Source: Malacoraja senta
Taxonomy: Eukaryota
Reading direction: 5' to 3'
Length of the DNA: 64,000 nucleotides
Assembly: GCA_038087875.1 (NCBI GenBank)
Contig: CM075992.1
Span: forward strand, 7,876,001-7,940,000
Positions 2,795 through 63,867 of this stretch are shown here, piece after piece (positions within the stretch are counted from its first letter, which is position 1; each line of letters opens with the position of its first letter). A model generated the notes under the pieces. The model did no database searches and was not told where the DNA came from. It saw nothing but the letters and a program-made list of their open reading frames with translations. A program made the position numbers and the translations under genes.

Positions 2795-3782
2795 TTTATA
2801 TCTACAAAATCAATTCAAAATCATCACAATAAAATGTGGTAGAAAATATGCATGCACTGTGCTTTATAAAATTCATCATATCATCTTTTGATTGTGAGAT
2901 TTCTTATTATGAAACATTACAAAACATTTAATATGCTCTAGCTATGAATAAAAATGTTAACTGTAAGCAACTCTTTAATGATACCGACAGGCAATCAGGT
3001 TCAATATAACATTTCCAAGAAATAATGAATAAGTTGGTTTACCTATTCAAATCAGCTAACTCATTGTTTTATGCGTCAGGTACTTGAAACAGCTGAAAAT
3101 TACACCTTCAAACCCACACTTAATATTCTGCTATAGAAATAGCTGGTACACAACAAGCAGTGTTCTGGTTGGATTGCCTCTTGGGACATGAAGATTTTTC
3201 TTTAAATAGCATTGCTGGATATTAACAGCAAAACTAAGGACAGCTCATCGGATGAAGAAGTTGAATAGTTCATTAATCGGTCAAACTGATAGTGAGCAAT
3301 GACACATAAAAGAACTGTTATTACGTTGTAAAATCTTATATATTGTCTAGGTATTCAGTCATAAAATGGATCAGTAAAATCAATGAATAGTCCAGAGAGT
3401 TCATGTGCAGATTTTGGTAAATCAATTCACAATAAACTCTAGACTTACTACAACAAATGATTACAAAAAGATGACATTGTACACATTTTAAAAAGCAGAT
3501 TTCTAATACAGCTCCACATCAGCACTGAAAAAGACTTTCAACTGCCACCATTAGCGTATCTACACCCTTCCTTACCTTCTCCCAATTCCTTCACTCTATT
3601 TTCCTTAAGCATTTTCCTAAATACCCAACATGTCAAAATTAATCACTCCAGGACTACCCACATGCCAAACGCTATATCTTATTGTCCTGCTTCGGAGTGC
3701 ATCCTTCTCTCCAACCTCCACTAGATCAGAACCTAATCTGCCTCTGGATCACATCTTTCAGAATGCATTAAAAATAATCCAG

Positions 3783-3992
3783 TCGTCAGTCGATAGTCTA
3801 TCTCCTGTGATGGAGACGGTGAGATCAAGAAAGGGCAGGGAAGTGTCGGAAATGGTCCAAGTGAATTTGAGTGCAGGATGGAAATTGGTGGTGAAGTTAA
3901 TGAAGAAGAGTCTCTACCTGAAAAGTCACTCATTCCTTTTCTCCAGAAATGCTGTCAGACCCGCTGAGTCACTTCAGCTTTTTATCTCTATC
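3783..3992. mobile_element. Penelope-like insertion: inverted RT fragment plus sense 3' end, 14-bp TSD
   Basis: 3783-3900 minus reads INFTTNFHPALKFTWTISDTSLPFLDLTVSITGDRLSTD (PLE RT). 3901-3992 plus is the PLE tail. Flanked by taaaaataatccag at 3769-3782 and 3993-4006. Confidence 0.85.
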
Positions 3993-4624
3993 TAAAAATA
4001 ATCCAGAATCCATTTAAGAATTATGTTCCCACATGCCCCTTAATTGAGATGAAACTTTGTGATATGTAGAAATTAAAACCTCATCTGGACTTTTCTACTC
4101 AACTAGCCATCACAGTTGACACTTCCACCCCAGTGTCTCCTCTGCATTTTCTGATTTTCAATAAATTCCACCTCATATTTCTTTGACAAGGTCTCTTCCA
4201 TTCTTGAAATGACCTGTAAAATGTTATTATTAATTTCAAATAAAATCCATTCCCAATATTAATCTTAAACTGCATGAATAAAATCAACATTGACACTTGC
4301 ATCACCATCCCTCCCCTCAGAAAAGATGCCTAGTATGGCTCATGTTCCGTTATATCCCCAATTAATCTCACTGCAATAGCATGAAAGAGTCCCAACTTGG
4401 TCTAATCTTCTATCGCTGTGCTTCTTCTTAACAATCCACTTGAGCCAGTGGACCACTCTCCTTTGCACCTGTTTGTTGCCTTAATATTCCACCTTATTTA
4501 TTATTCCATAAAGTCTTCAAAGTCTTTCTCCAATTTCATGTAATGTATATTAAGTAACTTACCACCCAACTATTTTCTTGCTTTCAAATGGAACAATAAA
4601 ATAAAATCGCCATGGTTAATCGTC

Positions 4625-6724
4625 ATACCGACGAGTGGGCAGGCCATCCTAGACTGGGTATTATGTAATGAGGAAGGATTAGTTAGCGATTTTGTTGTGC
4701 AAGGCCCCTTGGGCAACAGTGACCATAATATGGTGGAATTCTACATTAGGATGGAGAGTGACACGGTTAATTCAGAGACTAGAGTCCTGAACTTAAAGAA
4801 AGGAGACTTTGAAGGTATGAGATGGGAATTGGCTAGGATAGACTGGCAAATTATACTTAAAGGGTTGACAGTGGAGATGCAATGGCAAAGATTTAAAGAC
4901 CACATGGATGAACTCCAAAAAATGTTCATCCCTGTCTGGCAAAAAAGTAAAACGGGGAAGGCGGCTCAACCATGGCTAACGAGGGAAATCAAGGATAGTG
5001 TTAAATCCAAGGAAGAGGCAGATAAATTAGCCACAGGAAGCAGCAAACCAGAGACTGGGAGAAATTTAAAACTCCACAGAGGAGGTTAAAGGGGTTAATT
5101 AAGAGGGGGGAAAAGAGCATGGAAGAAAGCTTGCAGGGAATATAAAAACTGACTCTAAAAGATTATATAGATATGTAAAAAGGAAAAGATTAGTGAAGAC
5201 AAATGTAGGTCCCATACAATCAGAGACAGGTGTATTTATAATGGAAAACAAAGAAATGGCAGAACAGTTAAATTAGTACTTTGTTTCTGTCTTCACTAAG
5301 GAAGGTACAAACAATCTCCCAGAAATACTAGGGGACTGAGGATCTAGTGGGAGGGAGGAACTGGAATCCACATTTTTCAGGAAATGGTATTAGGTAAACT
5401 GTTGGGACTGAAGGCAGATAAATCCACAGGGCCTGATGGTCTGCATTCAAGAGTACTCAAGGAGGTGGCGCTAGAAATCGTGGATGCGTTGGTGATCATT
5501 TTCCAAAGTTCTCTCGACTCTGGATCAGTTCCTGTGGACTGGTGGGTAGCCAATGTAACTCCACTTTTAAAAAAAGGAAGTAGAGAGAAAACGGGGAATT
5601 ATAGACCAGTTAGCCTTACATCGTAGTGGGGAAGATGCTTGAGTCGATTGTTAAAGATATTATAACAGCGCATTTGGAAAGCAGTGACTGGATCAGTCAA
5701 AGTCAGCATGGATGTATGAATCTTCTCGAATTTTTTTGAGGATTTAACAAGTAGAATGGATAAGGGAGAGCCAGTGGATGTGGTGCATCTGGACAAGGTC
5801 CCACACAAGAAATTAGTGTGCAAAATTAGAGCACATGGTATGGGGGTTCAGTACTGACATGGATAGAGAACTGGTTGGCAGACAGGAAGCAAAGAGTAGG
5901 AATTAACACGTCCTTTTCAGAATGGTAGGCAGTGACTAGTGAGGTGCTGCAAACCTCGGTGCTGGGTCCCCAGTTATTTACAATATATATTAATGATTTA
6001 GACGAGGGAATTAAATGTGATCTCCAAGTTTGCGGATGACACAAAGCTGGGTGGCAGCGTGAGCTGCGATGAGGATGCTATGAGGCTGCAGGATGACTTG
6101 GAGAGGTTGGGTGAGAGGGCAGATGCATGGCAGATGCAGTATAATGTGCATAAATGTGAGGTTATCCACTGGTGGCAAGAACAGGAAGGCAGATTATTAT
6201 CTGAATGGTGTCAGATAAGGAAAAAGGGAGGTGCAATGAGACCTGGGTGTGCTTGTACATCAGTCATTGAAAGTAAGCATGCAGGCAAGAATGGGTTGAC
6301 TGGGTTTGTATTCACTGGAATTTACAAGGATGAGAGGGATCTTATAGATAGAAACATATAAAATTCTTAAAGGATTGGACAGGCTAGATGCAGGAAAAAT
6401 GTTCCCAATGTTGGCAGAGTCCAGAACCAGGGATCACAGTTTAAGAATATGGGGTAGGCCATTTAGGACTGAGATGAGGAAAAACGTCTTCACCGAGAGT
6501 TGTGAATCTGTGGAATTCTCTGCCACAGAAGGCAGTGGAGGCCAATTCACTGGATGTTTTCAAGAGTTCGATTTAGCTCTTGGGGCTAAAAGAATCAAGG
6601 GATATGGGTAAAAAGCAGGAACGGGGTACTGATTTTAGATGATCAGCTATGATCATATTGAATGGTGGTGCTGGTTCAAAGGGCCGAATGGCCTACTCCG
6701 GCACCTAATTTTCTATGTTTCTAT
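4625..6724 (+). mobile_element. CR1 LINE, 5'-truncated, frameshifted ORF2 (end of APE, RT, 3' UTR)
   Basis: Motifs LGNSDHNMVEF, KSTGPDGLH, NYRPVSLTS, ISKFADDTKLGG and SRTRDHSLRI occur across broken frames. Ends with the CR1 tail gggccgaatggcctactcc...ttctatgtttctat. Confidence 0.95.
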
Positions 6725-7021
6725 ATTAATTACATTTCTAGCCTGTACTGAATTCTTAAAATTCACTAAATGTTGAAAAGTCTGTCTGGCTACCTATTTT
6801 TCTAGTTTCTATCAAACACATCATTTTTATGGCCCAGAAAGAATCTCCCTTTCTGACATATTCTCTCAATTTCCAACACACTTTTTCTTGCAACATCAGA
6901 GATCTCCGTCAGTTATTGCTGTAAAACTTGCATACACACTTTCAAATGTTAATCCCCCCCACAGATTCCATTTCTTCAAAATCACCGAAGAAATGTCATT
7001 GACCAGAAATATGAACTACTT

Positions 7022-7434
7022 GTTAAAGAAGGAACTGCAGATGCTGGAAAATCGAAGGTAAACAAACATGCTGGAGAAACTCAGCGGGTGCAGCAGCATC
7101 TATGGAGTGAAGGAAATAGGCAGGTGAGAGGTTAATTAAATATTTATAAAACACTGAGGTTACAACTTAAGCATTGCATCCAATTGTGATTATCACACTG
7201 TTGGAAGGACATGAAGACCCCCAATCAGATGCAAAAAAGATTCACCAGAATGCTTCAAGGGTCGATCAATTTCAGCTACATGCTTCGACTGGAGAAGCTG
7301 GTACTGTACTCTTTGAAACAAAGAATGTCTGAAATAGTCTGAAGAAGGGTTTCGGCCCAAAACGTTGCCTATTTCCTTCGCTCCATAGATGCTGCTGCAC
7401 CCGTTGAGTTTCTCCAGCATTTTTGTGTCCCTTC
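7022..7434. mobile_element. Penelope-like fold-back insertion with captured local DNA, 14-bp TSD
   Basis: Antisense PLE tail at 7022-7122, a copy of 8809-9016 at 7121-7328, and a sense PLE tail at 7337-7434. TSD aatatgaactactt at 7008-7021 and 7435-7448. Confidence 0.9.
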
Positions 7435-7984
7435 AATATGAACTACTTCCCTTGCCGCCTGAGCGTTTCCAGCATTCTAGGGCTATAATTTTACATTTCC
7501 AACATCTACAGCCTTTTGTTTTGCACCTCATTGTCGTATTTCCACTTCTCAACTCTCCACTTTTATTTTTTCCAACTAAAGGTATTTTTGTCCTCTTGAA
7601 GATACCACCTGAAACATAGACCCGTGCGGCAAAATTGTCAATAAATTAGTTTAACAGTAATTTCTTTATTGCAACTTAAATAAAAGTTCAGCTCCAATAT
7701 GATGCCAGCCAAGTGAAGCTGTATTACGGGACTACATGCACACTAATCAATCTCAGAAGCAATGGATCCATTTGAAGCTCTGCCATCCTACCACTTGTGT
7801 CCATCGACGGTGGACAACTATGCAGCTAATAGGAGGAGGAGACCAAGTAACGGCTCAAATACCATATACAAAATGCACTGTAGGTAATTCTAACAGCACC
7901 TCCCAAATTTCTATCAACAAGTAGGATAAGGTCAACACCATGGGAGCAACATCACCCAGTTTTCCCCTCTGATTCACACACCAT

Positions 7985-8440
7985 CCTGTCGCGGAGCGGC
8001 CGACGGAGCCTACGGCTGGAGTCCGGGTCGGCACCACGGAGGCGTGAAGTGGCACGGAGGTGTGAAGTGGGATGGAGGCGTGAAGTGGGGCGTTGGCAGC
8101 GGTGATGCCTTGACGGCAGCGGTTAAGCCTGGCAAAGATGGGGCCTCGGCAGCGGCGATGCCTTGCAGGTTGACCCGCGGTCGACGAGAGCATGGATGGG
8201 GGGGGGGGAAGAACCATGGAGGACCCGGCGTGGGGGGACTGCCATGCAGGAGGCGGGGGGAGAACAATGGACACCTGGCGTGGGGGAACTGCTGTGGGGG
8301 TGTGGGTGGGCGGAGGAGCCAGCGTGCTTTGTGACTTTGTCAGCGCCATAGAAGCCTGCTATTTGTACACATTGTGTATGCAAGGAAAGAATTTCACTGT
8401 GCCTAGTCACATGTGACAATAAGTATTCCTTCCCTATTCC
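7985..8440 (+). mobile_element. GC-rich non-coding retroposon with Rex1/Babar-type tail
   Basis: CpG-rich body with 3 copies of an 18-bp unit (ggaggcgtgaagtgg...), ending aatttcactgtgcctagtcacatgtgacaataagtattcc(ttccc/tattcc). It interrupts an older LINE 3' end. Confidence 0.6.
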
Positions 8441-8699
8441 AATAATATGCCATTGGTCCTTTGTCGTCACAGAATCCAAATTGTAGAAATTTGTATCCAA
8501 TAGCACTGTCGGAGTCGCTTTACCAGAAGGACTGCGGTATTGCAAGAAGGACAAAAGGCAGTGGAGGGGGGACGAGGGACAGGTAATAATGGCAGTGATG
8601 CCATCCGATCCCAAAAATGAAAATAGACATTTAAAGTAAATATTTATTTCACCAACAAAACAAATTTGAATTATGATTTTAAAGTAGAATCTCTTTCAA

Positions 8700-9140
8700 A
8701 CGTGGGTATATGTATGCATAACTCTCTAAAGGTGGCTAAACACATAGAGAGAGCCGTTACTAAGATACACAGAACCCCAAAGTTCATAAATAAAGGCACA
8801 GAATAACTCAGGAGAGAGGTAAATTAAATATTTATAAAACACTGAGGTTACAACTTAAGCATTGCATCCAATTGTGATCATCACACTGTTGGAAGGACAT
8901 GAAGACCCCCAATCAGATGCAAAAAAGATTCACCAGAATGCTTCAAGGGTCGAGCAATTTCAGCTACATGCTTCGACTGGAGAAGCTGGTACTGTACTCT
9001 TTGAAACAAAGAATGTTGAGAGGAGATCTGATGGATGTATACAAGATCATGATGAGACAGGACAAATAGGGAGAAGCTGCTCCCATTAGTGGGTGGTTAA
9101 AGGATCAGGAGCATAGATTCAAAGTGATGGATAAAAGATG
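8700..9140 (+). mobile_element. Old CR1 fragment (RT C-terminal region); donor of the captured 208-bp segment
   Basis: Decayed CR1 sequence (...agattcaccagaatgctt...ggagaagctgg...gaggagatctgatgg...). Confidence 0.7.
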
Positions 9141-9577
9141 TCAGAAGATAGGCAGAAATGCTGGAGGAACTCAGCGGGTGAGGCAGCATCTATGGAGGTC
9201 CATCACTTGTATAACACCGACACTTAGGTCAAATTTTATTTTTTTCATTTCTCAGGAAAAGATTGATCGATTGACATATGATTCAATGATCAACAACTCA
9301 TTCCACACCAATACAGATTGCTGAAGCGGCACAGAAGTTCAGACTAGTCTGCCTGTTTGGACGTGAAGCAACTAACAAGATTTACCAAGTGCATCAAAAA
9401 TCAGAATGTTGCAACCAGGCCACACAACATTTTAATCAATATGTTCTGTGACTTTTAACATTATTTGTTTGTCCTGCAGATATACTAAACTGACCAACTA
9501 CTAAACTCCTAATCAGCTAACCCTTCCAATGCCTGACTGGATGGTTGGAAGGTGGAAATGTATATCTTCTTTACTTC

Positions 9578-10868: not shown

Positions 10869-10881
10869 TATAGGGTGTAGG

Positions 10882-11020
10882 TTTAAGAAAGAACTGCAGA
10901 TGTTGGAAAAATCGAAGGTAGACAAAAATGCTGGAGAAACTCAGCAGGTGAGGCAGCATCTATGGAGCGAAGATAGATGCTGCCTCACCCGCTGAGTTTC
11001 TCCAGCATTTTTGCCTACCT
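10882..11020. mobile_element. Penelope-like fold-back mini-insertion, 13-bp TSD
   Basis: Inverted PLE tail arms of about 48 bp around a ggagcgaag loop. TSD tatagggtgtagg at 10869-10881 and 11021-11033. Confidence 0.9.
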
Positions 11021-11090: not shown

Positions 11091-11262
11091 GTAGGAAGTA
11101 AATGCAGATGCTGGTTTATACCCAAGAATGACACAAAATGCTGGAGTAACTCAGCGGGTCAGGCAGCATCTCTGGTGAAAAATAGGTGACGTTTTGGGTT
11201 GGAACCCTTCTTCAGTCTAAAAAAGGGTTCCAACCTGAAACATCACCTATTCATTTTCTCCA
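11091..11262. mobile_element. Penelope-like fold-back insertion with two back-to-back hammerhead-like motifs
   Basis: Minus CTGAAGAAGGGTTCCAACCCAAAACGTC (11188-11215) abuts plus ctaaaaaagggttccaacctgaaacatc (11217-11244). TSD tta(a/g)tgtggatgt at 11078-11090 and 11263-11275. Confidence 0.85.
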
Positions 11263-19355: not shown

Positions 19356-22107
19356 ACCTTTTTAATTAGTTCTTCACAAAATAGATCTTAATAAATAAAC
19401 TAAGTAGACAAAACAGCTGTCATGACAATAGGGTCTCAAACTAAACAGTTGTGAATAATATGTGTGGGCCTCCTCCTATATGGGTCATGTATATAAAAAC
19501 GATCTGAAATGTTAACCCCCAAAATAATAGCATTCACAAATAAAGTCTAGGAAAAAGAAAATTGTGAATATCTTTTCTTTGGTATATCATAGATACGCCC
19601 AAAAAAACATTACAGATGGAATATGTATAAAAGTTAGGGTGGTAAAAGGGCATAACAATAAGTAATAGGTCTGTCTCCTCATTAAGAAATAGGAGAATAA
19701 TGGACTAGGTTTAGCTTGAAGAAATTATTTTCATTCCTCCATCATTCCCAAGGGAAATTACAATGCACAAATTAACATTGGATCCAAAATAGGTAGTAAT
19801 ATTGAACAGTCATTGGTCTCACACCATGAGAAACAGCTGTAGCTTCTGAGGAATAGTCATTAAAATAATTAGCAATGTTTAACTAGCAGCACAACAAAAC
19901 AGTCCTGTGATAGATGTAGCATAACTGAAGCTGCCAGGAGTGAAGTTGCTCTCCCACTCATGCCCACCATTTTCACAGGCTCCTGGAGATCCTACAGCCT
20001 AACTGCCGATAAGTTTAAAACAAAACTTTACAGAGTAGATTTAGAACAGAATCAATTATTATAATTGACATTACCAACAGTGGAGAAGAAACTCTTCACG
20101 ATCAGCTGCCAGCTGCTCATATCTTGCCCCGAGATTGGGAAAGAATTACAAAGAAACAAATCCATAATTTTCTAAAATAAACTGCTCTACCAAATGTTCT
20201 CTCCTCTCCAGTAGATGACAGTTTGAGATTGAGGTCCATGCACCCAATGACTAAACAGACTCTAATGACCGTTTAGAGGCATTAGAGTCCAGGTCATGTT
20301 ATGCTACTGCTGCTGTCTGATACTCTTGCCATTAAATAGTCCAAAACACAAAAAGACAAAAGAATTGTACCAACCGCTTTTAATCCATAAATAACCAATG
20401 AATATGAGAAAAATAATTATTAAGCTAACATTTGAACATACAATATTACAGAAACTGGAGATTTTGGCTTCCTTGAAGAACAAATGAGCAGTTCAACAAT
20501 GTATTTGAAAGAATAAGCATAAAACCAATGCTATATTTTAAGGCTGAATACAAAATGATGCAAAAAAACTGTTCATTGGGAGCAGGGCAAAACTGTTAAT
20601 GGGCATGATGATGGAGGAAGGTATTTAAAAATGACACCATGTTACAGAATTGATACAAAGGTCCAAAAACACTGTTTATCAAGAAAATGGAAAACTAATG
20701 ATATGTAAGAGATAAAATGTAGGAATGCCAAATTAAATAAAATAATTCTTACAGATACCAAAAATAGCAAAAAGTAACAAAGCAGATCAAAATGGTCACA
20801 AAAAGGGAATTAAAAAATAAAAAATCCTGCAAGGGATTTTTATTTGTTTTGGGATTTAGACATTGCTGTCAGGAGCAACCTTGATTACCCAAACCTAAAT
20901 GACCTTAAGAAAGTGATGGTGAGTCATCTGGTTGAACCTCTGCAATCCTCTGGTGAAGGTTATCCCAGTGTAGATTAGTAGGGAATTCCAGGTTTTAGAT
21001 CCAGCAATGGTGAAGCACCAGTTATATATTTCCACGTTAGGATAGAATGTGACTTGGAAACAAAAATGCAGCTGGTTTTGTTCTCATTAAAGAATACAGA
21101 TTTGGGGGTACTATCAGAGTAGCCAAGGCAAGAAACTGCAGAGTATTGCAGCCAATGACCCATAAGTCTTCTATATTATGGCTGGTATGTTGTCAAAGCT
21201 CATAATCCTGCTGGATCCAGTACTTTCAGCTACTTCTTGATATCATTTGGAGTGAACCAAATAGCCTGAAGACTGATATATGTGATGATAGAATTTTGGA
21301 GGATGTCACAATGGTTAATTCATTCAAAATTTCTGACTGAAATAGTTGTAAATGCTTCAGCCTCATCTCTAGCATTCACGTGCTGGGCCTCACCATCACT
21401 GAAGATTCTTGCTGCTCCTTATCATTTTAGTGGTTTAAATGATCACCAGAGTTTACAACTAAATGCTCTACAACTGCAGAACTTTGAACAGATCCCGGAG
21501 TTGCACTTTGATCTGTCTTTTGAACACTGTTTAGCATGCATGTGGTCTTGTGTTGCAACTTCACTGGTCTGGCATCTTATTTTTTAAGTACGGCTGATGC
21601 TGCTTCATTCTGCTCTTACTGAACAAGATGTTGATCCCTTGTCTTGATAGTAGCGGTCAAATGAGGGATGTGGCAGACTGTGAGGTTACATATTGATGGT
21701 GAACATATTTTCTGCTGCCGATAGTCTACAGAGCCTGCTAAAAATTTATATTCCATTCAGCATGATTGTAGTGCCACATTACACAACTTAAAGTGACCCT
21801 CGGTATGCATATAGGACTTTGTCTCCACAAGGTGAAAACAAGATCAAGTAGCTTCATTTTTGTTTTGTTTTGAATTGCTTACCAGCTGTTGCAGATCTAG
21901 TCTGGCAGGGAGTCTATTCATGGCACAGCCATGTCAGTCACTATGACACTGGCAGACTACTCCTGGTGTTGAATCTTGAAGTGTCTTAATCAGTGTCCAT
22001 TTTATATTCCTGTTTGTTCTTTCAGTACTTCCTCCAAGTGTTAGTCAGCATAGAATAGCACAGATATAAAAAGATGGCAGATGATAATCATAAGGAGCTT
22101 ACTTGCT

Positions 22108-22623
22108 AAACCAAGCGTAGGCTTGGCGATCGTTTCGCCGAACACCTCCGCTCAGTCCCCATTAACACCAAGCATAGGCTTGGCGATCGTTTCGCCGAAC
22201 ACCTCCGCTCGGTCCGCATTAACCAATCTCCCTGTGGCTCAGCACTTCAACTCCCCGTTCCATTCCGAATCCGACCTTTCTGTCCTGGGCCTCCTCCATG
22301 GCCAGTGAGCACCACCAGAAATTGGAGCAGCAGCACCTCATATTCCGCTTGGGCAGTCTGCACCCCAGCGGCTTGAACATTGACTTCTCCAATTTCCGGT
22401 AGCCCTTGCTGTCTCCTCCCCTTCTCAGCTCTCCCTCAGCCCTCTGGCTCCTCCTCTTCCTTTCTTCTTCCCCCCCCTCCCCACCCTACATCAGTCTGAA
22501 GAAGGGTTTCGGCCCGAAACGTTGCCTATTTCCTTCGCTCCATAGATGCTGCCTCACCCGCTGAGTTTCTCCAGCACTTTTGTCTACCTTCGATTTTCCA
22601 GCATCTGCAGTTCCTCCATCAAC
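22108..22623 (+). mobile_element. Penelope-like element 3' portion (GIY-YIG C-terminus, 3' UTR, hammerhead), 11-bp TSD
   Basis: Translates across small frameshifts as TKRRLGDRFAEHLRSV...LPVAQHFNSPFHSESDLSVLGLLHG...KLEQQHLIFRLGSLHPSGLNIDFSNFR* (stop 22402). TSD gcttacttgct at 22097-22107 and 22624-22634. Confidence 0.92.
22496..22523 (+). ncRNA. Minimal hammerhead ribozyme motif (PLE type), intact core
   Basis: CTGAAGA-A-GGGT-TTCG-GCCC-GAAAC-GTT: CUGANGA box, extra A, 4-bp stem II with a UUCG loop, GAAA box, palindromic loop-less stem III and a GUH site. Helix I pairing is short. Confidence 0.7.
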
Positions 22624-22829
22624 GCTTACTTGCTTATGTTTGACCTGATGCGATGAGACATCACGAGGTCAGAAATCAATTTTGATGACTTTAAGAAGGA
22701 CTCTTTCATTTATATGTACCACTGTGCCACCATCTCTTGTGGGTGCATCTTGCCAAAGGGATATTGTCTAAAATATGATTTCACTTGTACAATAATGTTA
22801 GGCTGTTGCTTAATAAATCATGGAATCAT

Positions 22830-25678: not shown

Positions 25679-25820
25679 TAGAGACACAGGAAATTGCAGA
25701 TATTAAAATCTTGAGCAAAACAAAGTATGAAGAAGGGCCCTGACCTGAAATATCGCCTATCCATTCCTTCCAGAGATGCAGCTTGGCCTGCTGAGTTCCT
25801 CCACCACCGTGTGTTACTCA
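25679..25820. mobile_element. Older Penelope-like fold-back insertion, 14-bp TSD
   Basis: Short inverted tail, then tgaagaagggccctgacctgaaatatc...gagatgcagc. TSD aaagccccttagaa at 25665-25678 and 25821-25834. Confidence 0.8.
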
Positions 25821-31676: not shown

Positions 31677-32733
31677 GATACATAGATACATAGAAAATAG
31701 GTGCAGGAGTAGGCCATTCGGCCCTTCGAGCCTGCACCGCCATTCAATATGATCATGGCTGATCATCCAACTCAGTATCCCGTACCTGCCTTCTCTCCAT
31801 ACCCCCTGATCCCTTTAGCCACAAGGGCCACATCTAACTCCCTCTTAAATATAGCCAATGAACTGGCCTCAACTACCCTCTGTGGCAGAGAGTTCCAGAG
31901 ATTCACCACTCTGTGTGAAAAAGTTTTTCCTCATCTCGGTCTTAAAGGATTTCCCCCTTATCCTTAAGCTGTGACCCCTTGTCCTGGACTTCCCCAACAT
32001 CGGGAACAATCTTCCTGCATCTAGCCTGTCCAACCCCACAAGAATTTTGTACGTTTCTATAAGATCCCCTCTCAATCTCCTAAATTCTAGCGAGTATAAG
32101 CCAAGTCTATCCAGTCTTTCTTCATATGAAAGTCCTGACATCCCAGGAATCAGTCTGGTGAACCTTCTCTGCACTCCCTCTATGGCTATAATGTCCTTCC
32201 TCAGATTTGGAGACCAAAACTGTACGCAATACTCCAGGTGTGGTCTCACCAAGACCCTGTACAACTGCAGTAGAACCTCCCTGCTCCTATACTCAAATCC
32301 TCTTGCTATGAAGGCCAACATACCATTCGCTTTCTTCACTGCCTGCTGCACCTGCATGCCTACTTTCAATGACTGGTGTACCATGACACCCAGGTCTCGC
32401 TGCACCTCCCCATTTCCTAATCGGCCACCATTTAGATAATAGTCTGCCTTCCTGTTTTTGCCACCAAAGTGGATAACCTCACATTTATCCACATTATACT
32501 GCATCTGCCAAACATTTGCCCACTCACCCAGCCTATCCAAGTCACCTTGCAGTCTCCTAGCATCCTCCTCACAGCTAACACTGCCCCCCAGCTTAGTGTC
32601 ATCAGCAAACTTGGAGATGTTGCTTTCAATTCCCTCGTCCAGATCATTAATATAAATTGTAAATAGCTGGGGTCCCAGCACTGAGCCTTGCGGTACCCCA
32701 CTAGTCACTGCCTGCCATTGTGAAAAGGACCCG
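31677..32733 (-). mobile_element. Young CR1 LINE, 5'-truncated, near-intact RT C-terminal ORF
   Basis: VTSGVPQGSVLGPQLFTIYINDLD, ISKFADDTKLGG, RPHLEYCVQFWSP and SRTRGHSLRI are in one frame, with a frameshift near the C-terminus. Ends in a (ctatgtat)n tail. Confidence 0.97.
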
Positions 32734-33079
32734 TGGAGGAGGAGGTATGAGGAGAGATTAGATAGGCTGGGATTGTTCCCCCTGGCATGAAGAAGGTCAA
32801 AAGGTGATCTTATTGAGATGTACAAAGGGCATAGATAAGATGGATTTTCAGAGTTTTTTTTAAATTTACTTATGATGATTAAAAAGAATGATGAGAGTAA
32901 TGAAGATATGGTAGGCAATGGACATTTTGGCTATCACACTGAAGATTTATGCTCCAGAACAGGACATACCTCTACCAAAGCTGCTCCAGCACACCTATAA
33001 CACATCTAGTTAATATGGAAATTTAGTTATGATTGATACACAAAAAAACAGATCAAGTCCAATTTGATGAATCATTTCA

Positions 33080-33920: not shown

Positions 33921-34049
33921 TGAATATGCAGGGAATGGAGGGGTGTAGGTCACCTGCAGGCAGAGGAAATTCGTATAACCTGGCATTGTGTTTGTCACAG
34001 ACCTTGTTTTCATTCGGCCTATTCCAGTGCTGTATTACACCATGTTCTA

Positions 34050-34751
34050 CCGTGCCCTCCATAATGTTTGGGACAAAGACCCATCATTTATTGATGGTAG
34101 TAGCATAAAGAATTCTGAAGTGTATAGACACATCCAATCTGCTCAAGTTCAAACAAATGCCTTAAAACTCATTTGCCGGCAGTTCATTCGACACCAAGAC
34201 AATGGTCCCAAACATACTGCTAAAGCAACAAATTTGTTTTTCAAAGCTGAAAAATGGTCAATTCTTGAGTGGCCAAGTCAATCACCCGATCTGAACCCAA
34301 TTGAGCATGCCTTTTATATGCTGAAGAGAAAACTGAAGGGGACTGGCCCCCGAAACAAGCATAAGCTAAAGATGGCTGCAATACAGGCCTGGCAGAGCAT
34401 CACCAGAAAAGACACCCAGCAACTGGTGATGTCCATGAATCGCAGACTTCAAGCTGTCATTGCATGCAACAGATATGCAACAAAATACTAAACATGACTT
34501 TCATTTACATGATATTGCTGTGCCTCAAACATTATGGTGCCCTGAAATGGGGGGGGGGGGGGACTATGTATAAACACTGCTGTAATTTCTACATGGTGAA
34601 ACCAAAATGTATAAAAATGGCCTTTATTGAAATCTGACAATATGCACTTTAACCACATGTGATTTTTTTCTATTACAAATCTCAAATTGTGGAGTATAGA
34701 GGCAAATAAATAAATGATGGGTCTTTGTCCCAAACATTATGGAGGGCATTG
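34050..34751 (+). mobile_element. Internally deleted Tc1 (same family as 47964-49611)
   Basis: ta|ccgtgccctccataatgtttgggacaaag left-end stub jumps into the transposase C-terminus (QDNGPKH...WPSQSPDLNPIEH, D34E spacing, stop 34491). The right TIR is complete. Confidence 0.95.
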
Positions 34752-35218
34752 TGTGTTCACTGAGAGAGTCCAACTTCCTACACCATGTTCAACAATATTG
34801 CAACACCAAATCCCTCAACAATATCACAGGAGTGTCACTAATGAGTGGAACGCAACGAGTCCAGCCATATAAATACGATTGCTACAAGAGTTCAGGGATT
34901 ACATATATTGCAGCGTGACTCAACATCCAATTCTACTTTATCGCCCAACCACTAACAGCCCTTCTACCAGTGAGAAAAAGTTTTGACACAAAGTTAAAAG
35001 TACTTTAAGAAACAGAGAGGCAAAGTGATTTATAGTGGGAATTCAAGAATTCGTCCAGACAGTTAAACACAGCCATCAATGCTAGCGACACTGAAATTGA
35101 GGATATATACGCCTGAATTGTAGGCGTACAGAGCTGTTAATGGCTAAATGGATTGGATACTGCAATGGGTCGCAATGAGATTTGAAAACAAGGATGAAAA
35201 CTTTAAATGGAGGCATAA

Positions 35219-35345
35219 GTGACTGCAAATGCTGGAATAAAAGACAAACTGCTGCAGGGTCTTGAGATGAAACATCAACAATTTATTTCTCCTCCATAGA
35301 TGCCACTTGAGCTGCTGAGTACCTCCAGCATTTTGTTCTTTGCCT
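35219..35345. mobile_element. Old Penelope-like fold-back stub
   Basis: Short inverted piece ctgcaaatgctgg...gctgcag, then gggtcttgagatgaaacatc...tccatagatgcc...ctgagtacctccagca. Confidence 0.6.
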
Positions 35346-41908: not shown

Positions 41909-42596
41909 CAACATCCTGGTAATTGCATACCAACATCCTGGTAATTGCATCAAAAGTGTACAAGAGTGGTAAGAAAGAACAATTATTAAAAGTGGTGAAA
42001 GAAAGGAATGAGGAGATTGTAGGAACAAACCTACATCAGATTTTTTTAAATTTAATTATATGGGAGTTCACTTGTACGCAAGGATGTCAGTAAGTCAGGC
42101 ATTCGTAACTCGTATTTCATTAATCTCCTTTAATTATGGTTTCTACCTGAGTTAGGTTACATTATCATATCATCTCCATCATGATATAACTCCAAGAAAA
42201 ATGCAAAAAGAAAACCATTTGTGAAGCAAAAACCATTTATGACCTTTTCAACCTTAACACAGGCATTAAATTTGTCAACATGGAATATCTTCGGCAAATT
42301 CATCAGACAACAGAAATTTACCTTTTTTGTGTTTGCTTTGGGACAGATGCAAGCCATGATCCTCAGTGAATGGTAACAAGCAAGGCTGTCATTATCCCGA
42401 AACATTTCACAATCATTCTCACTATAATGTTGTACTTCACATGCAACAAATTTATTTTGGGAATGAGCTAATCTTCAGATGTAACAGAAAACTATTCAAA
42501 CTACAGCAACTACACTTCAGAACTTAGTAGTCGAGCTGCAGTATGCAAATTACGCTTTCCTTTGTGCACACCGAGAGGTCGAGCTCTTATCCATCA

Positions 42597-43989
42597 TTAT
42601 AGACCAGTTAGCCTGACATCGGTGGTGGGGAATATGCTGGAGTCATTTATAAAAGATGAAATAGCCACACATTTGGATAGCAGTAACAGGATCGGTCCGA
42701 GTCAGCATGGATTTACGAAGGGGAAATCATGCTTGACTAATCTTCTGGAATTTTTTGAGGATGTAACTAGGAAAATGGACAAGGGAGAGCCAGTGGATGT
42801 GGTGTACCTGGACTTTCAGAAAGCATTTGATAAGGTCCCACATAGGAGATTAGTGGGCAAAATTAGGGCACATGGTATTGGGGGTAGAGGGCTGACATGG
42901 ATAGAAAATTGGTTGGCAGACAGGAAACAAAGAGTAGGGATTAACGGGTCCCTTTCAGAATGGCAGGCAGTGACTAGTGGGGTACCGCAAGGCTCGGTGC
43001 TGGGACCACAGCTATTTACAATATATATCAATGATTTGGATGAAGGGATTCAAAGTAACATTAGCAAATTTGCAGATGACACAAAGCTGGGTGGCAGTGT
43101 GAACTGTGAGGAGGATGCTATGAGAATGCAGGGTGACTTGGAGAGGTTGGGGGAGTGGGCAGATGCATGGCAGATGAAGTTTAATGTGGATAAATGTGAG
43201 GTTATCCACTTTGGTATCAAAAACAGGAAGGCAGATTACTATCTAATTGGCGTCAAGTTGGGAAAAGGGGAAGTACAACGGGATCTGGGGGTCCTTGTTC
43301 ATCAGTCTATGAAAGTAAGCATGCAGGTACAGCAGGCAGTGAAGAAAGCGAATGGCATGTTGGCATTTATAACAAGAGTCGTCGAGTATATGAGCAAAGA
43401 GGTCCTGCAGTTGTACAGGGCCCTAGTGAGACCACACCTGGAGTATTCTGTGCAGTTTTGGTCCACTAATTTGAGGAAGGACATTCATGCTATTGAGGGA
43501 GTGCAGCGTAGGTTTACAAGGTTAATTCCCGGGATGGTGGGACTGTCATATGCTGAGAGAATGGAACGGCTGGGCTTGTACACTCTGGAGTTTAGAAGGA
43601 TGATAGGAGATCTTATTGAAACATATAAGATTGTTAAGGGTTTGGACACGCTAGAGGCAGGAAACATGTTCCCAATGTTGGGGGAGTCCAGAACCAGGGG
43701 CCACTGTTTAAGAATAGGGGGTAAGCCATTTAGAACGGAGATGAGGAAACACTTTTTCTCACAGAGAGTTGTGAGTCTGTGGAATTCTCTGCCTCAGAAG
43801 GCGGTGGAGGCCGGTTCTCTGGACACTTTCAAGAGAGAGCTAGATAAGGCTCTTAAAGATAGCGGAGTCAGGGGATATGGGGAGAAGGCAGGAACGGGGT
43901 ACTGATTGGGGATGATCAGCCATGATCACATTGAATGGCAGTGCTGGCTCGTAGGGCCGAATGGCCTACTCCTGCACCTATTGTCTATT
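42597..43989 (+). mobile_element. Young CR1 LINE, 5'-truncated, uninterrupted RT ORF
   Basis: Open frame from YRPVSLTS through QHGF, YLDFQKAFDKVPH, GVPQGSVLGP and KFADDTK to GYGEKAGTGY* (43905), followed by the 3' UTR tail. Confidence 0.97.
42598..43905 (+). pseudogene. CR1 ORF2 reverse-transcriptase fragment (no APE domain, no true start)
   Basis: About 435 open codons covering the whole RT domain. The N-terminal residues in the ORF track come from flanking DNA. Confidence 0.9.
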
Positions 43990-47963: not shown

Positions 47964-49611
47964 CAGTGCCCTCCATAATGTTTGGGACAAAGATCCATCA
48001 TTTATTTATTTCCCTCTGTACCCCACAATTTGAGATTTGTAATAGAAAAAAAAAAATCACATGTGGTTAAAGTGCACATTGTCAGATTTTATTAAAGGGT
48101 ATTTTTATACAGTTTGGTTTCACCATGTAGAAATTACATAGTTCCTCCCCCCCCCCCCCCCACCCCCCAATTTCTGGGGCAGCATAATGTTTGAGACACA
48201 TGGCTTCACAGGTGTTTGTAATTGCTGAGATGTGTTTAATTGCCTCATTAGTGCAGGCATAAGAGAGCTTTCAGCACCTAGTCTTTCCTCCAGTCTTTTT
48301 ATCACCTTTGGAAACCTTTATGGCTGTTTATCAACATGAGGACCAACGTTGGGCCAATGAAAGTCAAAGAGGCCATTATGAGACTGAGAAACAAGAATAA
48401 AACTGTTAGAGACATCAGCCAAACCTTAGGCTTATCAAAATCACTGTTTGGAACATCAGTGAGAAGAAAGAGAGCACTGACAAGCTTACTAATCGCAAAG
48501 GGCTGGCAGGCCAAGGAAGACCTCGACAACTGATGACAGAAGAATTCTCTCTATAATAAAGAAAAATCCCCAAACACCTGTCCGGCAGATCAGAAACACT
48601 CTTCAGGAGTCAGGTGTGGATTTGTCAATGACCACTGTCCGCAGAAGACTTCATGAACAGAAATACAGAGGCTACACTGTAAGATGCAAACCACTCGTTA
48701 GCCGCAAAAATAAGATGGCTGGGTTACAGTTTGCCAAGAAGTACTTAAAAGAGCAACCACAGTTCTGGAAAAAGGTCTTGTGGACAGACGAGACGAAGAA
48801 GAACTTATATCAGAGTGATGGCAACAGCAAAGTATGGATTGAAGGAACTGCCCAAGATCCAAAGCATACCACCCCATCTGTGGAACACGGTGGTGGGGGT
48901 GTTATGGCCTGGGCATGTATGGCTGCTGAATGTACTGGCTCACTTATCTTCATTGATGATACAACTGCTGATGGTAGTAGCATAATGAATTTTGAAATGT
49001 ATAGACACATCCTATCTGCTCAAGTTCAAACAAATGCCTCAAAACTAATTGGCTGGTGGTTCATTCTACAGCAAGACAATGATCCCAAACATACTGCTGA
49101 AGCAACAGAGTTTTTCCAAGCTAAAAAATTGTAAATTCTTGAGTGGCCAAGTCAATCACCCGATCTGAACCCAATTGAGCATGTCTTTTATATGCTGAAG
49201 AGAAAACTGAAGGGGACTAGCCCCCAAAACAAGCATAAGCTAAAGATGGCTGCAATACAGGCCTGGCAGAGCATCACCAAAGACACCCAGCAACTGGTGA
49301 TGTCCATGAATCGCAGACTTCAAACAGTCATTGCATGCAAAGGATATACAACAAAATACTAAACATGACTACTATCATTTACATAACATTGCTGTGTCCC
49401 AAACATTGTGGTGCCCTGAAATGGGGGGGGGACGATGAAAAAAACACTGCTGTCATTTCTACATGGTTAAACCAAAATGCAATTTATTAAAATCTGACAA
49501 TGTGCACTTTAACCAAATGTGATTTTTTTCTATTACAAATTTCAAATCATGTAGTACAAAGACAAATAAATAAATGATGGGTCTTTGTCCCTAGCATTAT
49601 GGAGGGCACTG
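47964..49611 (+). mobile_element. Full-length Tc1 transposon, IR/DR type, TA TSD
   Basis: ta|cagtgccctccataatgtttgggacaaag...ggagggcactg|ta. TIRs of about 235 bp contain an inner direct repeat cataatgtttgagacac. Confidence 0.97.
48336..49361 (+). pseudogene. Tc1 DD34E transposase, frameshifted
   Basis: HTH region (VRDISQTLGLSKS), VLWTDETK, GGGVMAWACM, QQDNDPKH and WPSQSPDLNPIEH lie in broken frames. Confidence 0.92.
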
Positions 49612-54707: not shown

Positions 54708-54930
54708 ACACGAGACTGTAGACAAAATTTTGAGCCAAAAACAATATGCTGGAGAAAATTAGCAGATCAGACAGCATCTGTGGAGAGAGATGGACAGTCA
54801 TGTTTTTGGTCAATATCCAACGATGGACTGAAAGTCTCATGGAAGAGGTCCGGGAGTAGAGTCTCAACCCAAAACATTGACTGTCCACGTCCCACAACAA
54901 ATCCTCTTGGTTCTGCCAGAAGATTGTTTT
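54708..54930. mobile_element. Old Penelope-like fold-back insertion
   Basis: Inverted tail (atgctggag...cagcatctgtggag...ggacagtca) followed by sense agagtctcaacccaaaacattgactgtcc. Confidence 0.55.
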
Positions 54931-58388: not shown

Positions 58389-59718
58389 GAGTACATTCAG
58401 AAAGTATTCAGACCCCTTAACTTTTCCACATTTTGTTACGTTACAGCCTTATTCTAAAATGGATTAAATTCTTCTTTTTTTTTAAATCATCAAACTACAC
58501 ACAATACCTCATAATAAAAAAGCAAAAACAGGTGTTCAGAAATTTTTGCAAAGTAATTAAAGAGATAACTGAAATATCACATTTACATAAGTATTCAGAC
58601 CCTTTACTCAGTACTTTGTTGAGGCACCTTTGGCAGCGATTACAGCCTCAAGTCTTCTTGGGTATGACGCTATAAGCTTGGCACACCTGTATTTGGGTAA
58701 TTTCTCCCATTCTTCCCTGCAGATCCTCTCAAGCTCTGTCAGGTGTGGATGGGGAGCGTCGATGCACAGCTATTTTCAGGTCCCTCCAGGGCCATCACCA
58801 AGGCCATCACCACTGGTGATGGCCTCCTCCCCGAAGGCCATCCTCACAACATGATGCTGCCACCACCATTCTTCACCGTAGGTATGGTATTGGCCAGGTG
58901 ATGAGCGGTGCCTGGTTTCCTCCAGACGTGATGCTTGAATCTCATGGTCTGAGAGTCCTTTAGGTGCCTTTTGGCAAACTCCAAGCGGGCTGTCATGTGC
59001 CTTTTACTGAGGAGTGGCTTCCGTCTGGCCACTCTACCATAAAGGCCTAATTGGTGGAGTATTGCAGATATAGTTGCCCTTCTGGAAGTTTCTCCCATCT
59101 CCACAGATGTACTCTGGAGCTCTGTCAGAGTGACCATCGGGTTCTTAGTCACCTCCCTGACCAAGGCCCTTCTCCCCCGATTGCTTAGTTTGGCCGGGTG
59201 GCCAGCTCTGGTGGTTCCAAAGTTCTTCCATTTAAGAATGACGGAGGCCACTGTGCTCTTCGGGACCTGCAATGCTGCAGAAATTGTTTTATACCCTTCC
59301 CCAGATCTGTGTCTCGACACAATCCTGTCTAAGATCTACGGACAAATACTTTGTCTTCATGGCTTGGTTTTTCCACCGACATGCACTGTCAACTGTGGGA
59401 CCTTGTATAGATTAATTTGCCACTGGTGGACTCCAATCAAGTTGTAGAAACATCAACGATAATCAATGAAAACAGGATGCACCTCAGCTCAATTTTGAGT
59501 GTCACAGCAAAGGGTCTGAATACTTATGTAATTGTGATATTTCAGTTATTTATTTTTAATTACTTTGCAAAAATTTCTAAATACCTGTTTTCGCTTCTTC
59601 ATTCTGGGGTATTGTGTGTAGATTGATGATAAAAAAAAGAATTTAATCCATTTTAAAATAAGGCTGCAATGTAAATGCAGAAAAGGTGAAGGGGTCGGAA
59701 TACTTTCTGAATGCACTG
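58389..59718 (-). mobile_element. Internally deleted Tc1 (second IR/DR family), TA TSD
   Basis: TIRs of about 210 bp (cagtgcattcagaaagtattc.gacccctt, inner DR aagtattcagaccc). Minus ORF RHRSGEGYKTISAALQVPKSTV...ARRKPLLSKRH...TVKNGGGSIML; most of the DDE core is deleted. Confidence 0.95.
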
Positions 59719-63657: not shown

Positions 63658-63867
63658 AAGTGTGTAAGAAGAAACTGCAAATGCTGGTTTAAACCAAAGA
63701 TAGACACAAAAAGCTGGAGTAACTCAGCGGGACAGGCAGCATCTCTGGAGAGAAGGAATGGGTGACGTTTTGGGTCGAAGAAGGGTCTTGACCCGAAACG
63801 TCACCCATTCCTTCTCTCCAGAGATGCTGCCTGTCCCGCTAAGTTACTCCAGCTTTATGTGTCTATC
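63658..63867. mobile_element. Penelope-like fold-back insertion, 11-bp TSD
   Basis: Near-perfect inverted arms of about 78 bp around gaagaagggtcttgacccgaaacgtc. TSD tgccaggtaat at 63647-63657 and 63868-63878. Confidence 0.92.

Follow-up and report, generated by a model that had tools for sequence, protein, structure and literature searches.

The fold-back insertion at positions 7008-7448 of the window (the whole 64-kb stretch of DNA analysed here) raises the question of how a copy of neighbouring DNA came to lie between two inverted arms of a Penelope-like element (PLE). An earlier sequence-only reading attributed it to template switching or synthesis-dependent repair during PLE integration. 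This account is supported in outline by an empty site, a donor that is older than the insertion and a spacer that is not multi-copy.

Anatomy of the insertion and identity of its arms

The fold-back structure is confirmed as real: two inverted pLTR arms and a 208-bp spacer lie between target site duplications (TSDs), and the total insert measures 427 bp. Its parts, together with the target and the donor, are as follows.

7008..7021, no strand: left TSD, 14 bp, exact; single copy in organism B
7022..7122, minus strand: inverted PLE pLTR arm, 101 nt, 91% identical to 22523-22623 by alignment
7022-7053: 32-nt tail within the left arm, absent from the right arm
7121..7328, plus strand: captured 208-bp copy of 8809-9016 with 4 substitutions; its first 2 bases are common to the left arm
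7329..7335, plus strand: 7-nt filler, which with 7327-7328 repeats the start of the sense arm (stutter)
7336..7434, plus strand: sense PLE pLTR arm, 99 nt, without the tail, 93% identical to 22493-22591
7339-7362: candidate hammerhead core near the beginning of the sense arm; 7359 is changed from G to A
7435..7448, no strand: right TSD, 14 bp, exact; crossed by X2 record 12, which runs from 7409 to 8048
6985..7520 excluding 7022-7448, plus strand: apparent older, decayed PLE pLTR relic that served as the insertion target, from local alignment
8809..9016, plus strand: donor, part of a decayed CR1-type LINE 3′ region continuing to ~9143 (33% aa identity), contiguous with 8808
9144..9197, minus strand: separate 54-nt PLE pLTR fragment, 128 bp beyond the donor, from a sequence match

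Most of this anatomy had been noticed from the sequence alone. The exact 14-bp TSDs, the antisense PLE tail at 7022-7122, the copy of 8809-9016 at 7121-7328 with its four substitutions and the 'ca' microhomology at the left junction all hold up. The sense arm does start at the candidate hammerhead, as described; its first base is 7336 by alignment, not 7337. Across the 64-kb window the TSD 14-mer occurs exactly at 7008-7021 and 7435-7448 only, and none of 300 random position pairs at similar spacing carried an exact repeat of at least 10 bp. At the left junction the 'CA' that ends the left arm is also the donor's first two bases, a 2-nt microhomology. At the right junction the donor's final 'GT' forms a 2-nt microhomology with the start of the sense arm, and is followed by a 7-base repeat of that start, then two bases and then the arm proper. 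The chance of each 2-nt junction match is ~0.07. There is moderate support for the insertion having landed in a much older pLTR relic, which by local alignment scores 31-36 against three window copies, values reached by 1-2 of 1000 shuffles each; a profile search at E 0.05 missed this relic.

Both arms are 91-93% identical to a PLE 3′ end at 22493-22623. Just upstream of that 3′ end lies an ORF relic (22110-22399) that matches residues 290-369 of P0004 (E 1e-16), a protein annotated in Mobula hypostoma. Residues 272-346 of P0004 match Pfam GIY-YIG with an E-value of 4.6e-4, below the gathering score, and RVT_1 is present in the related proteins P0010 and P0007. A second PLE relic lies at 3785-3910; six of its 20 protein matches carry a species name, all of them elasmobranchs (rays, skates and a shark). 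Pfam searches with four short PLE peptides gave no match (0/4). Judged from these protein matches, the arms are pLTRs of a canonical EN+ Penelope-like element, which bears an RT plus a GIY-YIG at its C-terminus, and the DNA probably comes from an elasmobranch. By the core pattern that we take to mark a hammerhead, the candidate at 22496 has CTGANGA, a 5-bp stem II and GAAA all present, and the focal candidate at 7339 would carry a G-to-A change within GAAA. No hammerhead family was matched in Rfam, and MFE folds of the core did not yield a hammerhead fold.

The left arm reaches 32 nt past the 3′ end of the right arm, and this is the one-sided tail of inverted 5′-truncated PLE copies, which carry a 30-40-bp tail at one end only according to the available text of PMC8557442. 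Moreover, both arms share a dinucleotide that is absent from the five other young copies aligned, and therefore both derive from one subfamily. An open frame of 25-26 codons from an ATG is found in the pLTR tail (7022-7095 on the minus strand; 22546-22620), consistent with pLTRs holding an ORF start. We also note two public proteins, P0006 and P0007, named divergent protein kinase domain 1C and nicotinamide riboside kinase 1, that match the PLE relic peptide and have GIY-YIG or RT matches; these are probably exonised PLEs or annotation chimeras.

Origin of the captured segment

The donor belongs to a LINE that we take to be of the CR1 family; aligned over 130 aa with the RT-encoding ORF of the window (42472-43902), its region is 33% identical at the aa level. 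Copy and donor differ at 7125, 7133, 7191 and 7266. In all four cases the copy has T, an unexplained pattern with a rough post-hoc chance of 0.01-0.05. Other CR1-type relatives in the window, the next-best matches, are 59-66% identical to the donor segment, which rules out two independent CR1 insertions and bears out the earlier view that the near-identity reflects local copying. The donor is nearby, as had been proposed, but the proposed distance of 1.7 kb includes the insert itself: the spacing is 1,688 bp in the filled allele, and prior to insertion ~1,360 bp lay between the target and the first base of the donor (7448 to 8809).

Assembled contigs from 4 of 24 runs were compared with the window over 6700-8808, and the statements made here cover the contigs listed. 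X1 and X2 represent organism A, X4 organism B and X8 organism C. The flanks diverge from the window by ~0.2% in X1 and X2 and by ~5-6% in X4 and X8. An empty site with one TSD copy, which the sequence-only reading had suggested looking for in related species, was found in organism B: a 925-nt contig (X4 record 15) joins 6701-7010 (310 letters) to 7436-8052 (617 letters). Its join is 2 letters longer than a clean single TSD, and its pieces are gapped, leaving the exact register uncertain. Among the X8 contigs listed, none covers the insertion site. The outer junctions are present in both samples of organism A: record 1 spans 6700 to 7050, record 8 spans 6700 to 7043, and record 12 covers 7409 to 8048. 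These contigs enter the arms by 29, 22 and 26 nt, which is below the 31-letter rule and is expected where contigs halt at a repeat. Neither inner junction, nor the copy's base at 7266, was found in the contigs listed for any of the four runs.

The donor is contiguous with its upstream flank (8808) in 4/4 runs and therefore predates both the A-B split and the insertion. The reverse direction, with 7121 as donor, is ruled out because 8809-9016 is continuous with its flanks in 4/4 runs. Donor contigs carry the donor base at 7191 (X2, X4 and X8) and at 7266 (X1, X2 and X4), so the copy is derived at these two of the four sites; 7125 and 7133 fall outside the rows listed. Depth over 7126-7267 is 5-90, compared with 0.2-13 million over the arms, and at 7166, 7191 and 7266 each run has one contig among those listed, namely the donor contig. 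The spacer is thus not part of a multi-copy PLE subfamily, the outcome that the earlier reading had named as fatal to it. With the donor in place in 4/4 runs, an empty site and a spacer that is not high-copy, it follows that the donor is ancestral and the spacer a later local copy. The X1 donor contig alone carries the copy's T at 7191. The X2 donor contig has a depth of 29.3, against 19.3 and 25 for its neighbours and 22.6-29.3 expected had the copy merged with it, and the X4 and X8 donor contigs show no depth excess. The T in X1 and the depth in X2 are weak hints that the copy is present in organism A.

Could the PLE insertion be real but its interior misassembled, with donor sequence wrongly set between the arms? 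The inner junctions are in none of the contigs listed, and the X1 and X2 donor contigs are unbroken across 8808/8809, as such an error would allow. We nevertheless regard it as very unlikely. Collapse would not give rise to four copy-donor differences and a 7-nt filler, and the T at 7191 in the X1 donor contig is expected if copy and donor had merged, or if a T allele exists in the species. The X2 depth sits at the top of the merging range, although this is weak and X4 and X8 show no excess. Moreover, the contigs listed leave aside 215,888 further pieces, and assemblers of this kind are prone to prune short links that lead into very deep repeats. We give hardly any credence to a further explanation, that arm, spacer and arm form a pre-formed, multi-copy non-autonomous element (MITE-like, or pLTR-mobilised cargo) lying by chance near similar sequence. 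The pLTRs of PLEs can mobilise cargo in trans, as described in the available text of PMC3846280, but the contrast in depth between spacer and arms and the single donor contig at 7166, 7191 and 7266 argue against such a unit here, the donor is without a flanking pLTR pair, and the 32-nt offset of the arms sets them apart from terminal inverted repeats. A MITE or fold-back DNA transposon was ruled out on this offset and on an interior that is not high-copy.

The separate PLE fragment at 9144-9197 probably predates the insertion, and the donor contigs of X1, X4 and X8 end inside it, at 9171-9183. Homology tethering or 3′ transduction via this fragment was not adopted, since such proximity arises by chance with a probability of 0.14. 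The donor itself appears less diverged from organisms B and C than the flanks are (~1.5-3% versus 5-6%); against organism B it shows ~3-4 differences in 202 positions, compared with 5.7% in the flanks (p=0.01-0.03). This seems to reflect chance, local rate or constraint. At ~6724, contigs in 4/4 runs join a CR1-type 3′ end directly to an inverted PLE tail, which suggests that CR1 3′ ends are frequent sites of PLE insertion at other places in these genomes.

Filling of the centre

We favour, tentatively and at close to an even chance, a double-primed PLE insertion whose centre was bridged at integration by synthesis from local DNA via 2-nt microhomologies. To judge from the TSD and the empty site, the PLE endonuclease would nick the two strands 14 nt apart. 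Each 3′-OH would prime reverse transcription near the 3′ end of the PLE RNA, one from a distal and one from a proximal start site. The product would be two ~100-nt outward-pointing arms, one of them with the 32-nt tail; the anatomy is observed here, and the chemistry would follow that of the purified anole PLE protein, which cuts and extends both strands and has two RT start sites bounding the tail (available text of PMC11167929). Both cDNAs would stop at or just past the hammerhead, as most of the window's young copies do. Because both copy the same RNA polarity, their ends could not simply anneal and would have to be sealed by end joining. In the neighbouring fold-backs the cDNA ends would have been joined directly. 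In the focal case one end may have paired by 2 nt with chromosomal DNA ~1.36 kb away and copied 208 nt, and the copied end would then have joined the other arm through another 2 nt with a 7-nt stutter, presumably in this order and by the action of either the PLE RT or a polymerase of the host, for instance Pol theta. As the sense arm begins at the usual boundary (column 95), there is no sign of later resection. L1 templated insertions have been attributed to SDSA-like copying in the available text of 10.1101/2024.08.27.596794. Distance tells against DNA capture at integration, as L1 templates usually lie at most 15 bp away and the donor here is ~100-fold farther. As a result, a dead LINE fragment has been duplicated locally, as a one-off, and no function is expected of it.

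A single locus cannot tell a DNA template from an RNA template. In the RNA version of the same event, the PLE RT would jump from the PLE RNA to a nascent local transcript over 8809-9016, copy 208 nt and join the other arm. A donor in the kb range would suit a tethered nascent RNA, and the four T of the copy correspond to A on the bottom strand, which an RT prone to errors could have produced. At the hammerhead boundary, the 7-nt stutter resembles repeated template jumping; however, Pol theta-type DNA synthesis stutters too. No host exon was found to provide a transcript or its direction: Pfam searches of 300 ORFs (all 267 of at least 62 aa and 33 of the 242 of 47-61 aa) gave, at E <0.001, transposon families only (RT and transposase). 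For L1, one insertion with co-inserted local pre-mRNA is on record (PMC10191854), but it is outnumbered by DNA-templated cases, namely 22 templated insertions in ~3,598, which typically measure <250 bp and have templates no more than 15 bp from the site (10.1101/2024.08.27.596794), and three from a cell model whose templates were nearby genomic sequence (PMC11702581), as far as the available text of these papers goes. On balance we think an RNA template rather unlikely.

Copying could also have come in a second step. A spacer-less fold-back would have inserted first, and the near-palindrome would later have broken at its centre and been repaired with a templated neighbouring copy that stabilised it. 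The spacer-less neighbours form long hairpins with short loops, palindromes in mammalian cells break and are revised at the centre (available text of PMC8701086), and the organism A contigs listed show outer junctions only. Moreover, there are 5 differences between the arms in 69 shared positions, against 4 in 208 between copy and donor (p=0.045; p=0.11 without the CpG site). A spacer younger than the arms would account for this gap; so would arms derived from two RNAs, or a copy that took all the changes. If all four changes are assumed to be on the copy, as at the two polarised sites, its per-lineage 4/208 matches the arms, with 5 non-CpG changes in 200 (p=0.75). Timing is the weak point of same-event copying, on which the divergence tests point both ways; no allele lacking the spacer turned up among the contigs listed. 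Against two steps, the sense arm still begins at the hammerhead boundary usual here, arms joined directly would have left a loop of ~30 nt from the outset, and three spacer-less fold-backs persist in the window. Palindrome revisions are also mostly deletions (93% of 118), with spacer inclusion uncommon, in the same text (PMC8701086). We consider this sequence of events unlikely.

Known systems and the other PLE insertions of the window

The novelty implied by the sequence-only reading was overstated. Host sequence between TSD-flanked pLTRs (PMC3846280) and local templated pieces at L1 insertions (10.1101/2024.08.27.596794, PMC11702581, PMC10191854) have already been published, to go by the available text of each. 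The PLEs of Adineta vaga have head-to-head inverted pLTRs with a ~31-bp tail on one arm and an 8-10-bp TSD, and a host NRPS gene and non-coding sequences lie between pLTRs inside the TSD, with the empty site as proof (PMC3846280). The focal insertion resembles these in its inverted pLTRs, one-sided tail, empty site and unrelated sequence between pLTRs within the TSD; its TSD differs in being 14 bp long. However, the NRPS cargo sits between two direct pLTRs and is explained by trans mobilisation, whereas the focal cargo lies at the inversion centre. A local donor is not given in the available Adineta text, in contrast to the one found here ~1.36 kb away and without a pLTR pair. The direct-pLTR frame is absent from the focal locus, which has two inverted arms only and a donor with one 54-nt fragment 128 bp off, and pLTR-mediated trans-mobilisation of the Adineta type was rejected. 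Inverted junctions in Adineta vaga are explained in that text by self-priming on an antisense template (PMC3846280).

The spacer works like an L1 templated insertion but from beyond the usual distance. It is a non-element segment of <250 bp (208 bp) inside the TSD that duplicates nearby DNA, with 2-nt microhomology at each junction, as is also described at twin-primed inversion junctions; its template lay ~1,360 bp away, not within the 15 bp typical of L1 in the text available. Further differences are that the element is a GIY-YIG PLE and not L1 ORF2p, that there is no poly(A), and that both primings fall in the 3′ region of the RNA and not one internally. Twin priming itself still needs validation, according to the available part of a review (PMC10760644). 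The focal insertion is also like the Poseidon PLE of Anolis carolinensis in vitro, in which both strands are cleaved and extended, two start sites bound the tail and the pLTR has a hammerhead, for which the focal copy has a candidate; Poseidon has a 30-40-nt tail, and its targets include its own pLTR (PMC11167929). In the available text of that work the joining of the two cDNA ends is unaddressed and captured host DNA unreported. Non-LTR retrozymes are likewise short, PLE-related sequences in vertebrates and bear a hammerhead, but they are head-to-tail tandem units, whereas the focal insertion is a single inverted pair with a foreign spacer (available text of 10.64898/2026.07.22.740005). A full-text literature search, in which older Penelope work was scarcely covered, returned no PLE insertion with a local donor at the inversion centre and an empty site.

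The formation and sealing of PLE inverted ends are still described as undefined in the available text of PMC8557442 and PMC11167929. With its donor and empty site both known, this locus offers a genomic counterpart to the in vitro finding that two start sites are used and both strands are extended. Fold-back-type joints are present in all four data sets compared, making a direct genome-wide test of PLE end sealing possible; joints that end at 7335-7340 do not count here as evidence for a truncation hotspot, since the reference itself ends there. Taken alone, the locus amounts to one neutral event in which a dead LINE fragment was duplicated, and events of this type are already known from L1. 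A broader hypothesis, which we hold to be improbable, is that PLE integration routinely makes a double-primed intermediate and that every fold-back centre is a scar of end joining, open to filling from chromosomal DNA that lies kilobases away. If it is true, DNA-templated gap filling would underlie some of the 'host capture' and intron retention now put down to RNA-level mobilisation of PLEs, and the abundant fold-backs of sharks and rays would be a ready catalogue of local duplications.

Spacer-less fold-backs are ordinary in the window: they occur with 13-bp TSDs (0-1 mismatch) at 10.9, 11.1 and 63.7 kb. TSDs of 13-14 bp bound other PLE insertions at 10869/11021, 11078/11263, 63647/63868, 22097/22624, 36381/36492, 3769/3993 and 25665/25821. 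Of 22 pLTR profile matches, 7 begin at columns 94-103, at the hammerhead, and the focal sense arm begins at column 95, a boundary that for old subfamilies partly reflects seed-alignment bias. For the seven other fold-back centres, no match to a local non-PLE donor was better than E 0.056, and the focal capture is thus one in eight fold-back structures of the window. A 27-nt arm pattern had no matches in viral, metagenome and prokaryote genome collections; five metagenome loci obtained with a 20-nt arm pattern were rejected as short chance matches.

Other relics in the window include those of transposases at 33979-34488, 48493-49359 and 58847-59335 (DDE_3, HTH_Tnp_Tc3_2, HTH_SB) and of RTs at 31872-32930 and 42472-43902. 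At 3769-4006 a 14-bp TSD surrounds an inverted internal PLE coding fragment and a sense hammerhead arm, an inversion of the classical twin-priming type. The 5′-truncated PLE at 22097-22636, with a 13-bp TSD (1 mismatch), opens with a 57-bp head-to-tail duplication (22110-22166 and 22167-22223). Lastly, the tail lies on the left (minus-strand) arm in 5/5 clear fold-backs (7022-7434, 10882-11020, 11091-11262, 35217-35336 and 63660-63867; p=0.06), and in 7/7 when two cases judged by eye are included (25679-25820 and 54710-54900; p=0.016). This bias suggests a strand asymmetry tied to the direction of transcription or replication.
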